DNA of 12,799 nucleotides from a virus (lineage: Duplodnaviria > Heunggongvirae > Uroviricota > Caudoviricetes). Location of the stretch: IMG/VR virus record IMGVR_UViG_2693429524_000004, positions 1 through 12,799 of that record. One strand, 5' to 3'. Shown piece after piece: positions 9,001-12,799 of this stretch. Position numbers: made by a program. Every line of letters begins with the position of its first letter. Positions within the stretch are counted from its first letter, which is position 1.

Positions 9001-12000
9001 TTCCGTACAAACGCGATGGTGAGTTGTTGCAGGTCAAGCGAATCAGCACTGAGCGCCCGGACGGGAAGAAAGTCATTATGGCAGAAGGTGATTGCGAACC
9101 TTGTCTGTTCGGATGGCAGGCTCTGGACGCTGGCGTGAGGGCGGTTGTACTTTGCGAAGGCGAAATTGATTGTATGAGCTATGCGCAATACGGCATCTCG
9201 GCGTTATCCGTGCCGTTTGGTGGAGGGAAAGGCGCTAAGCAACAGTGGATTGAGTTTGAGTACCACAACCTCGACAGGTTTGAGGAAATATTCATCTCGA
9301 TGGACGTTGATGATGTTGGTCGTGAAGCCGCAAGGGAAATCGCAAGCCGACTCGGTGAACATCGTTGCCGTCTTGTTACTCTGCCGTACAAAGACATCAA
9401 CGAATGCCTGATGAACGGTGTTACCGAGGATGAAATCTGGCAGTACATCGGCACGGCATCCTACTTCGATCCTGAAGAACTCTACAGTGCGCGAGAGTTT
9501 TACCAGGACACTATCAACGCTTTCTACGGCAAGCAGCAGTATCTGTTTAATCCACCGTGGGAATCTCTGGCAGATAAATTCCAGTTCCGTGAGGCAGAGT
9601 TGACGCTGGTCAATGGTGTGAACGGTCACGGAAAAACGGAGGTTGTCGGGCATATGGCACTTGAGGCAATGCGTCAGGGAGTGAAGACGTGCATCGCGTC
9701 ACTTGAGCTGAAGCCTGGTATTCTCCTTAAGCGCCTTACCCGTCAGGCGACGTGCTGCAAGATGCCGCCAGTGCTGGAAATTGACTCTGCATTTAAATTT
9801 TATGACGAAAGACTTTGGGTGTTTGGCCTGACCGGAACGGCGAAAGCCGACAGGCTGATCGAAATATTCGATTACGCTCGCCGCCGATACGGGATCCAGT
9901 TATTCATCATCGACAGCCTGATGAAATGTGGCATAGGCGACGATGACTATAACGGGCAGAAGGCTTTTGTTGACTCGATTTGCGACTTCAAAAACAAAAC
10001 AAACTCCCACGTCATTCTCGTTACTCACTCGCGAAAAGGAGACAGCGAAGAAAAACCAACCGGGAAAATGGACGTAAAAGGCTCTGGAGCGATAACAGAC
10101 CTGACAGACAACCTTTTCATCATCTGGCGTAACAAGGCTCGCGAGAGAGCGTTACAGAGAGTTCAGAGTGGTGAAAAGATGTCAGAGAAGGACGAACAGC
10201 TACTGGCATCTCCGGCATCTGTTTTGATGCTTGAAAAACAACGTAACGGCGAAGGTTGGGAAGGTGGTGTCCCGTTGTTCCTTGACGAGCAATCGCACCA
10301 GTTCCTGCAACTTGAATCAGGATCGCCATATAGCTACATCGCCAATATGCCGAAATCGGAATATGACGAGGCGTGGCGACAGGAAAACGTGACGGAGTAT
10401 TAAATGAATAAAAAACAATTAGCCATTCTCGAAAAGGCATGGGATGCACAAATATCATGCGCTTTGAAAGAACAGGCACTACCAATAATCCAGACCAAAT
10501 CGAAAATAGCCAGGCAGTTATGCGATGACGGATTCCTGAACGAAGTTGAGATTACGCACCAGATGGTAACGTTCAAAGGGTATGAGATAAATCATCGTGG
10601 TATAGCGGCGTATTGCTCCCATCTTCCTGATGACGTTGACATTGATGAAATGGAAAGGGAGATGAAGCAATGACCATCTACATCACTGAGCTAATAACAG
10701 GGGCTATTTACACAGTAGCCCTTTTTTATTGGATTAAGAACGAGGGGGATCCTGATGGACACCGTTAACGGAATGTGTTCAGACGCACCGCGTGCCAAAA
10801 AATGTAAATGCGGAAAATCACCGACAATATTCGACATGGAGAACGGGTGCCAAATCTACTGCGCTAACCACGCTGCTGTGGCGGCCGCGAATTATCGCAG
10901 TGCGGTAACGGAGTGGAATAACCTGAAATCTGTTAGAGAGGGAAGTCATGAAAAAACTAACCTTTGAAATTCGATCTCCGGCACATCAGCAAAACGCTAT
11001 TCACGCAGTACAGCAAATCCTTCCAGACCCAACCAAGCCAATCGTAGTGATCATTCAGGAGCGCAACCGCAGCTTAGACCAGAATCGGAAGCTTTGGGCT
11101 TGCCTTGGTGACGTCTCTCGTCAGGTTGAATGGCATGGGCGTTGGCTGGATGCAGAAAGCTGGAAGTGTGTGTTTACCGCAGCATTAAAGCAGCAGGATG
11201 TTGTTCCTAACCTTGCCGGGAATGGCTTTGTGGTAATAGGCCAGTCAACCAGCAGGATGCGTGTAAGCGAATTTGCGGAGCTATTAGAGCTTATACAGGC
11301 ATTCGGTACAGAGCGTGGCGTTAAGTGGTCAGACGAAGCGCGACTGGCTCTGGAGTGGAAAGCGAGATGGGGAGACAGTGCTGCATGACTATCAAATCAA
11401 ATACGCCAGCGTCAGATAGGTATCGGCTTATTGAGGATTATCTGTATTTAGACGGAGATACAGTCAGATACAAAAAGGACTCGCTAAAACACCCCAACCA
11501 CAGCCACCGGGCCGGAGATGAAATTAAAACATCGATAAATGGATCTGGGTATAGACAGGTGTGTTTTGCAGGCATTCAGATGTTTGTTCACGTAGTTGTT
11601 TTTGCGCTGCACAACAAAAGAATGCCATTGAAAAATATTGACCATATTAACGGAAACAGGCTGGACAATTCCCCAAAAAATCTTAGGGAGGCAAGCCGGA
11701 TAGCAAACAGCCGAAATCAGAAAACTAAGTGCAATAGCCGTTCTGGAATAAAAAATGTTTTATGGAACAAGCAAAAAAATAAATGGGACGTTCAAGTGCG
11801 CACAGATTTTGGCCGGTTGCATTTTGGGTTCTATGAAGATCTTGAGCTTGCTGGTTTGGTTGCCAGTGAGGCTATCAACAAATATCACGGACAATATGCG
11901 AGGGTTGAATGATTAAGCATAAATCAGAAACACCAAAAGAAGTTAGAGACTGCTGGCAAACGCCGCTTTGGCTTTTTGATGCACTGGATATTGAGTTTGG

Positions 12001-12799
12001 ATTCTGGCTGGATTCAGCTGCGAGCGACAAAAACGCTCTGTGCGCTCACTGGCTAACTGAGGTCGACGACGCGCTCAATTCTGAGTGGGTAAGCCACGGT
12101 GCAATCTGGAATAACCCACCGTACAGCAATATCAGGCCGTGGGTGGAAAAAGCCGCTGAGCAGTGCATACAACAGCGACAGACGGTAGTGATGCTTGTGC
12201 CAGAGGATATGTCAGTCGGATGGTTCAGCAAGGCTCTGGAGAGTGTCGACGAAGTTCGCATCATCACTGATGGACGGATTAATTTTATCGAACCATCGAC
12301 AGGGCTGGAGAAGAAGGGAAACAGCAAAGGCTCCATGCTGCTGATTTGGCGACCGTTCATCAGTCCTCGACGGATGTTTACTACCGTATCCAAAGCGGCA
12401 TTGATGGCAATCGGGCATGGCGTCAGGAGGGCGGCATGAGGCGACAGCGACGAAGTATCACCGACATAATCTGCGAAAACTGCAAATACCTTCCAACGAA
12501 ACGCTACAGAAATAAACGCAAGCCAATCCCGAAAGAATCTGACGTAAAAACCTTCAACTACACGGCTCACCTGTGGGATATCCGGTGGCTAAGACATCGT
12601 GCGAGGAATACAAGGTGATTGACCCAAATCGAAGTTACGAACAAGAAAGCGTCGAGCGAGCTTTAACGTGCGCTAACTGCGGTCAGAAGCTGCATGTGCT
12701 GGAAGTTCACGTGTGTGAGCACTGCTGCGCAGAACTGATGAGCGATCCGAATAGCTCAATGTACGAGGAAGAAGACGATGAGTGATTACCTGAAATGGT

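Follow-up and report, generated by a model that had tools for sequence, protein, structure and literature searches.

What is a nuclease gene of homing type doing directly in front of a methyltransferase gene, in the middle of a tightly packed phage operon? The question is raised by positions 1 to 12,799 of the IMG/VR virus record IMGVR_UViG_2693429524_000004, a stretch of 12,799 nucleotides (the window) that holds the early region of a lambdoid prophage and then its nin region. Between ninB and ninE lie an open reading frame (ORF) for an HNH-AP2 endonuclease and dam, a gene for a phage Dam-family N6-adenine methyltransferase. A preliminary description of the locus gave the order as ninB-HNH-methyltransferase-ninE with ATGA overlaps, which is borne out by ORF calls and Pfam matches, and suggested that the nuclease and the methyltransferase form either a mobile homing cassette or a module with self/non-self logic. 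From sequence comparison and structural modelling, the HNH-AP2 ORF is probably a free-standing homing endonuclease gene of the I-HmuI kind, with dam as its target. On this evidence, dam is best read as the target and landing pad of the nuclease and not as its functional partner. The gene displays the features by which homing genes are recognized: its nuclease family, a precise presence/absence pattern, the lack of an intron or intein, a history discordant with that of its surroundings, and degeneration.

The boundaries of the insertion were defined by comparing the junctions of 66 empty and 31 filled loci. In the 66 HNH-free loci, dam opens with ATGACTATCAAATCAAATACGCCAGC-ACACGACAAG-GACTGCTGG, encoding MTIKSNTPAHDKDCW. 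The HNH ORF of the window reads MTIKSNTPA/SDRYRLIEDY..., with the slash at the end of the dam-derived codons, and homology to the HNH-free alleles picks up again only at GACTGCTGG (position 11948). The cassette between these two points contains the body of the HNH gene, its stop codon, a Shine-Dalgarno GAGG (11900-11903), an ATG that overlaps the HNH stop, and 13 codons that stand in for the dam 5′ end. The nuclease gene brings no start codon: its first 26 nucleotides are the 5′ end of the resident dam, to which it is fused in frame. Judged from these junctions, the cassette gives dam a new start and N-terminus in exchange. The imported dam 5′ end was found at 48 places in 40 E. coli (Escherichia coli) genomes, 34 of which have the HNH gene and 6 a deletion relic. 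An Rfam intron search of the region gave no match, and a search for promoters and terminators inside it gave none above chance.

The distribution of the two genes differs widely. The dam core (11948-12435), which is 96-98% identical at the nucleotide level to the dam genes of HK97 and Louie, occurs at 2145 places in 1562 of 5426 complete E. coli genomes. The HNH gene is present at 46 places in 36 of the 5426, always with dam immediately 3′; it accompanies about 2% of the dam copies and is missing from about 98%. Among phage records, 424 match the ninB-dam-ninE locus and none of the 424 covers the HNH gene; the HNH-free arrangement is that of HK97, 434, SfI, Sf101, mEp043, HK140, and many Shiga toxin (Stx) phages. 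The HNH gene had no blastn match in 50,697 phage records, and tblastn with its protein retrieved only relatives below 60% identity from phage records. As in the window, the dam gene of the HK97-type nin region (HK97 NP_037744.1; 434, SfI, mEp043, HK140) lies between ninB and ninE and is joined to its neighbors by ATGA overlaps. These phages lack the HNH gene, however, and their Dam has the ancestral N-terminus MTIKSNTPAHDK where the window protein has MIKHKSETPKEVR. On this distribution, dam is the resident gene and the HNH gene a rare insertion.

The same codon of dam has been entered in a second dam lineage. There, an HNH protein 78% identical to that of the window (P0003) is encoded directly 5′ of a 188-residue Dam that is only 48% identical to the window Dam, and the gene upstream is a DUF1367 gene. 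In 23 HNH-free loci of this lineage, dam starts with ATGACCGACAAATCAAATACCCCGCC... (MTDKSNTPPEDKDRW). In the five HNH-positive loci, the HNH protein starts with the lineage's own MTDKS, followed by EQKYRLIEDF, and dam again starts with MIKHKSQTPIESRDCW. The MIKHKS segment is about 77% identical between the two lineages, in line with the divergence of the HNH protein and unlike that of Dam. As the aligned junctions indicate, the first codons of the HNH ORF derive from the local dam in each lineage, while the MIKHKS segment moves along with the nuclease. The insertion point lies just 5′ of the sequence coding for the conserved D-x-W-Q/R-T-P. Since the HNH protein is far more conserved than the Dam of its host locus, a horizontal move from one dam lineage to another, targeted to a single position, is indicated. 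The HNH-free alleles of both lineages have MT-KSNTP--DKD-W in common, and the empty state is therefore ancestral. Descent of the HNH-free alleles from HNH-positive ones by deletion was considered and excluded, as codons 10-12 (ACACGACAAG) are not contained in the cassette and the N-terminus type is common to both lineages. A scan of the GTDB species-representative genomes with P0003 confirmed no relative.

The cassette is less diverse than its surroundings. Across 15 distinct HNH-positive loci, nucleotide diversity was 0.0075 in the HNH gene and 0.0034 in the 39-nucleotide dam 5′ end, against 0.018-0.022 in the dam core and 0.028 in ninE, which places the cassette at about one-third of the flanking values (0.018-0.028). 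In the dam core, the distance between HNH-positive and HNH-free copies is about the same as the distance within each group, with one site only showing a frequency difference of at least 0.3, and the dam cores nearest to that of the window belong to genomes outside the HNH-positive list. The cassette was found in four upstream contexts. Three of them, an HK97-type ninB, a second ninB allele, and ninB plus another endonuclease gene, were also found with empty dam sites; in the fourth, the upstream gene is not ninB and ends in GTGA. The ninB of the window is 95-97% identical to the HK97 type.

About one-third of the cassette-bearing loci are degenerate. Five distinct deletion relics were recognized: L003 (with CTATCAA microhomology), L037 (GAGGG), L048, L049 (ATGA), and L176. 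In all of them dam is intact and keeps the imported N-terminus, and such a gene is predicted to be a resistant scar; E. coli E308 and TW10590 are examples of strains with a relic allele. Other copies of the HNH gene are broken by a nonsense mutation (L018), a frameshift (L021), or an IS100 insertion (L006). At the last of these (L006:1000-3485, E. coli 503440, NZ_CP025881), IS100 (istA/istB) follows nucleotide 49 of the HNH gene and nucleotides 43-49 are repeated on both sides. A 1-nucleotide deletion lies downstream as well, and the same disrupted allele is present in strain 503829 and in an IMG/VR contig (L022).

The preliminary description of the protein as an HNH endonuclease with an AP2-like domain held up, the first part by the Pfam HNH_3 match and the second by a family profile, a structural model, and homologues. 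The profile was built from 21 homologues of the window protein. Its N-terminal half has its best match in I-HmuI (1u3e), with an E-value of 1.7e-7, and positions 112-165 match the plant AP2/ERF structures WRI1 (7.8e-7), TEM1 (2e-4), and ERF1 (0.008). H69, D86, H87, N99, and N108 are invariant across the 21 homologues and all present in the window protein; the last four align with the active site of I-HmuI. The AlphaFold model (predicted local distance difference test, pLDDT, 88.6) has strands at residues 125-128, 133-140, and 143-150 and a helix at 153-167. It superposes on the TEM1 AP2 domain at 1.6-1.9 Å (probability 0.98-0.99), and its top fold match is I-HmuI (probability 0.99). The Pfam AP2 model gave no match to the window protein alone, even at E ≤ 10, while PF00847 (AP2) was detected directly in several homologues. 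Taken together, profile and model indicate that a C-terminal AP2-type domain is present. A terminase-associated role, as for HK97 gp74-like HNH proteins, was considered and is excluded by the nin-region position and by membership of the I-HmuI/AP2 family. In NCBI PGAP annotation the gene is already labeled "HNH endonuclease" in the genomes that have it.

The start of the HNH ORF needs one qualification. In the ninB allele of the window, an in-frame ATG (11367-11369) lies 18 nucleotides 5′ of the start that we use (MGRQCC-MTIKS...), and in this context the ORF could also start at 11367. This upstream ATG is missing from two other upstream contexts, which leaves 11385 as the sole start common to all. 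The annotation of phage Louie picks the equivalent upstream ATG as the start of dam.

These observations suggest how the element would work. The nin operon would be transcribed from pR after antitermination by N, and the HNH ORF would be translated from the original ribosome-binding site and start of dam, coupled to the ninB stop. Translation of dam would then re-initiate at the ATGA overlap of the cassette with its GAGG Shine-Dalgarno. The enzyme is predicted to nick or cut HNH-free dam at or near codons 9-13 in a co-infecting or co-resident lambdoid phage; this site is proposed because it is the sole local sequence that differs between the filled and the empty states. Phage recombination functions would repair the break from the HNH-positive copy and so convert the empty allele, whereas the HNH-positive allele would be immune, its target being split and the 3′ half replaced.

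Several points weigh against a homing gene aimed at dam. The pattern of presence, absence, and spread could in principle result from the mosaic recombination that is usual among lambdoid phages, acting around one old insertion. The HNH gene was never seen without dam downstream, which a dependence of the restriction-modification (R-M) type predicts likewise. The element is absent from the isolated phages among the 50,697 records searched by blastn. A co-conversion tract or fixed differences between HNH-positive and HNH-free copies were sought in the dam core and none was found. Finally, an exact 18-mer scan of IMG/VR for the MIKHKS segment did not find a native donor dam lineage; it yielded only cassette loci, one further relic (L176), and chance matches in unrelated genes.

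The first of these points belongs to a broader alternative, in which the nuclease is a non-homing accessory gene (a 'moron') that was inserted once, was spread only by ordinary homologous recombination, and benefits the phage, perhaps through damage to competing phages or to host DNA. Lambdoid nin regions are indeed highly mosaic, phage recombination boundaries are often marked by nuclease genes (PMC10448857), upstream contexts are shared by filled and empty loci, and the dam core showed no co-conversion tract. This alternative does not account, however, for a 78%-identical copy, with its own left junction, at the exact same codon of a dam too divergent (48% at the amino acid level) for homologous exchange, or for a cassette markedly younger than its flanks. 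The degeneration of about one-third of the cassette loci argues against a selected function, and a prevalence of about 2% of dam copies also speaks against it; we regard this explanation as quite improbable. An R-M-like module, in which Dam methylation would shield phage or host DNA from the HNH enzyme and the two genes would be co-selected and co-inherited, draws on the fact that in both lineages, divergent as they are, the HNH gene always directly precedes a PF05869 dam, and on the ATGA overlap of the two genes. The abundance of HNH-free dam genes, joined to ninB by a clean ATGA junction, speaks against the functional pair that had been entertained from the start; by itself it cannot decide between homing and an R-M-like pair, since orphan methylases are common too, and their combination with rarer cognate nucleases is a normal R-M pattern. 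What separates the two is the cassette boundaries, the invasion of a second lineage at the same codon, the non-methylase neighbors of related nucleases, and the frequent decay. The boundary falls at dam codon 13 and leaves the body of the methylase outside, and the dam core forms one gene pool with or without the HNH gene. The alleles differ only in 13 N-terminal codons before the first conserved motif, so the nuclease brings no new specificity. Between lineages, Dam is 48% and the HNH protein 78% identical. Relatives of the nuclease do not lie beside methylases and their family is that of the I-HmuI/AP2 homing enzymes, and the HNH gene is often lost or broken. The same evidence (boundary, second lineage, neighbors of relatives, decay) lends no support to the self/non-self module of the preliminary description, and we consider R-M-like function highly improbable. 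Its homing cassette survives in part, in that the HNH gene behaves as a homing-type mobile gene; the pair does not form a cassette, since only 13 dam codons travel.

The homing reading leaves room for a window copy that is an inactive remnant, with a real homing history and an ORF whose product has lost its activity. Broken copies are common among its sisters, selection would be relaxed by prophage residence, and the window copy differs from the 352-member cluster P0001 (98% identity) by substitutions of its own. Against this, the ORF is full length at 175 codons for amino acids, all family-invariant residues including D86, H87, N99, and N108 are kept, and the model is confident (pLDDT 88.6). 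An inactive window copy is rather unlikely.

Phages hold many relatives of the HNH protein at 35-50% identity (2676 records). Their tightly packed neighbors are tail-fibre, GH19 endolysin, holin, thioredoxin, and ninG genes, and methylase genes do not adjoin them. I-HmuI, from Bacillus phage SPO1 (PDB 1u3e), has the same D-H...N...N active-site layout as the window protein, but it is encoded inside a group I intron and binds DNA through NUMOD/helix-turn-helix elements, while the window protein is free-standing and has an AP2-like domain. I-HmuI is a strand-specific nickase, and the window enzyme may therefore nick instead of making a double-strand break.

The two-domain architecture is shared with the HNN-AP2 endonucleases of Xanthomonas phages Xp10/OP1/Xop411, T5, T1, and the RB phages, which are free-standing, scattered, present or absent among relatives, and degenerating (PMC2248197). 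Those genes were described without conserved flanks or an identified target, and their insertion looked sequence-independent (PMC2248197); in contrast, the insertion point in the window is known to the nucleotide, falls within coding sequence, and has been used in both dam lineages. The seg and mob genes of T4 (SegF, SegG, MobE) are promoter-less and embedded in operons, and they spread by 'intronless homing' via recombinational repair, with their target in the adjacent conserved gene (PMC2988022, PMC2790892). The window cassette is likewise promoter-less, part of a polycistronic operon, and in the same orientation as its neighbors. T4 seg/mob genes are intergenic and their products cut hundreds of bp away, whereas the window element sits inside the target ORF. 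In Aeromonas phage Aeh1 (cited in PMC2988022), the HNH gene mobE is inserted in the coding sequence of nrdA without an intron or intein, giving a functional split gene. The NrdA pieces of Aeh1 reassemble as protein, whereas in the window a 9-codon piece is fused to the nuclease and dam is completed by imported codons. The element thus differs from the free-standing endonucleases of T4 and from Aeh1 mobE in three respects: it is start-less, it carries a surrogate N-terminus for its target, and its host is a temperate lambdoid prophage.

We tentatively propose that these traits make up a distinct way for a homing endonuclease to reside in a protein-coding gene with neither intron nor intein. In this proposal, a start-less cassette would fuse to the first 5-9 codons of its target, bring a portable surrogate start and N-terminus with an ATGA restart, recognize sequence 5′ of D-x-W-Q/R-T-P, and hop between dams of 48% identity, and it may still home among the multiple lambdoid prophages of E. 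coli and its relatives. Our literature searches found no paper describing the dam-inserted HNH-AP2 element. Taking over a start and importing an N-terminus would be a neat way into a tightly coupled operon without killing the neighboring gene. The locus offers a natural, nucleotide-resolved example of a homing life cycle, from invasion and spread over several backgrounds to decay and to loss with a predicted resistant scar left behind. The example comes from temperate lambdoid prophages, where homing is far less studied than in T4-like lytic phages. The locus also corrects a possible misreading, as a nuclease beside a methylase need not be an R-M-like module. The predicted target is about 30 bp around dam codons 9-13, and elements of this kind would account for sharp mosaic boundaries and for annotation oddities such as the dam start discussed below.

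The features of the window are listed in Table 1. Consecutive genes of the nin region overlap by ATGA at ninB/HNH (11385-11388), HNH/dam (11909-11912), and dam/ninE (12436-12439), and by GTGA at ninE/ninF (from 12615). The overlaps suggest that ninB, the HNH ORF, dam, and ninE are translationally coupled.

Table 1. Coordinates of genes and sequence elements in the window.
Feature	Position	Strand	Evidence
N antiterminator	3861-4286	minus	
cI-like repressor	6036-6743	minus	
cII	7156-7455		
Replication initiator	7618-8415		
Primase-helicase	8523-10403		
ninB, Orf-family recombination mediator, resident upstream gene	10948-11388	+	Pfam NinB 7e-54
HNH-AP2 endonuclease ORF, 175 amino acids	11385-11912	+	Pfam HNH_3 4.3e-11; PHROG 99 HNH endonuclease 1.2e-42
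Borrowed segment: start codon and first 26 nucleotides (MTIKSNTPA), the 5′ end of HNH-free dam	11385-11410	+	26/26 nucleotides identical to the HK97 and Louie dam starts
Mobile cassette, 537 bp, in place of 10 bp (ACACGACAAG) of HNH-free alleles	11411-11947	+	Junction alignment, diversity, second dam lineage
HNH(N) nuclease core, residues 67-110 (DHINGN...NLRE...N)	11583-11714	+	Pfam HNH_3 envelope; alignment to I-HmuI catalytic region
AP2-like DNA-binding domain, about residues 120-170, three strands and a helix	11742-11894	+	Profile and model
Replacement dam N-terminus MIKHKSETPKEVR, supplied by the cassette	11909-11947	+	Tied to the HNH gene
dam, phage Dam-family N6-adenine methyltransferase, 176 amino acids, resident	11909-12439	+	Pfam PF05869 3.4e-65
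ninE, resident downstream gene	12436-12618	+	Pfam NinE 1.9e-42
ninF	12615-12785	+	Pfam NinF 1.6e-12

The methyltransferase had been recognized from the start as a phage-type enzyme with an NPPY motif, and both parts are upheld by the PF05869 match, which covers profile positions 1-167 of 169, and by the motif at residues 69-72 (12113-12124). The window enzyme would be expected to methylate DNA with GATC specificity, from its characterized relatives, the Dam enzymes of T1 and VT2. In the RefSeq (PGAP) tables of three HNH-positive genomes (L004, L005, and L007), the dam start is placed 3 nucleotides 3′ of the ATG, at an ATT, giving a coding sequence of 528 nucleotides, as in HK97. The ATG at 11909, with GAGG 5 nucleotides upstream, is a more plausible start, and the PGAP choice looks like an artefact of homology-guided start picking.

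Other endonuclease genes were encountered in the same region. In the closest relative of the window (IMGVR_UViG_2703719355_000002; L011:2402-3004), a second, unrelated gene of homing type lies between ninB and the HNH-AP2 gene. Its product has 200 amino acids, with NUMOD4, HNH_3, and I-HmuI NUMOD-like parts, and ends in KARWGDSAA*, nine codons that are the normal ninB C-terminus, as in the window. The HNH-AP2 gene takes over the 5′ end of dam, and this second gene has done the same, in mirror image, to the 3′ end of ninB. Because this upstream context occurs with filled and with empty dam sites, the two endonuclease elements are independent. A 203-residue HNH_3-AP2 gene is found between primase and ninB at two further loci (L007:1904-2515 and L004:1466-2077), and a 38%-identical HNH_3-AP2 relative lies directly 5′ of ninG in the Stx1 phage AU6Stx1 (L179:2402-3007). 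The lambdoid nin region looks like a hot spot of free-standing endonuclease genes.

E. coli Z1323CEC0001 and similar strains have several lambdoid ninB/dam loci, with up to 7 places matched by the junction query, 2 of them with the cassette. Filled and empty target sites thus appear to coexist in one chromosome, which agrees with a nin operon that is repressed in lysogens and would give homing a chance on induction. Among complete E. coli genomes, the best match to window positions 11200-12100 is at 98.6% and none is at 100%. The HNH protein cluster closest to the window protein is named from Escherichia albertii, E. coli, and Salmonella.

Small ORFs occupy 10404-10967 of the window, where L007 and L004 have the endonuclease gene between primase and ninB. 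One of them, a 70-residue cysteine-rich ORF (10755-10967), overlaps the start of ninB, and its protein has no Pfam match; an ORF in the equivalent position of L004, the equivalence being positional, is annotated as a (frameshifted) Lar-family restriction alleviation protein. A 174-residue ORF on the minus strand (12046-12570), antisense to dam and ninE, has nothing to support it and is probably open only by chance opposite a coding region.

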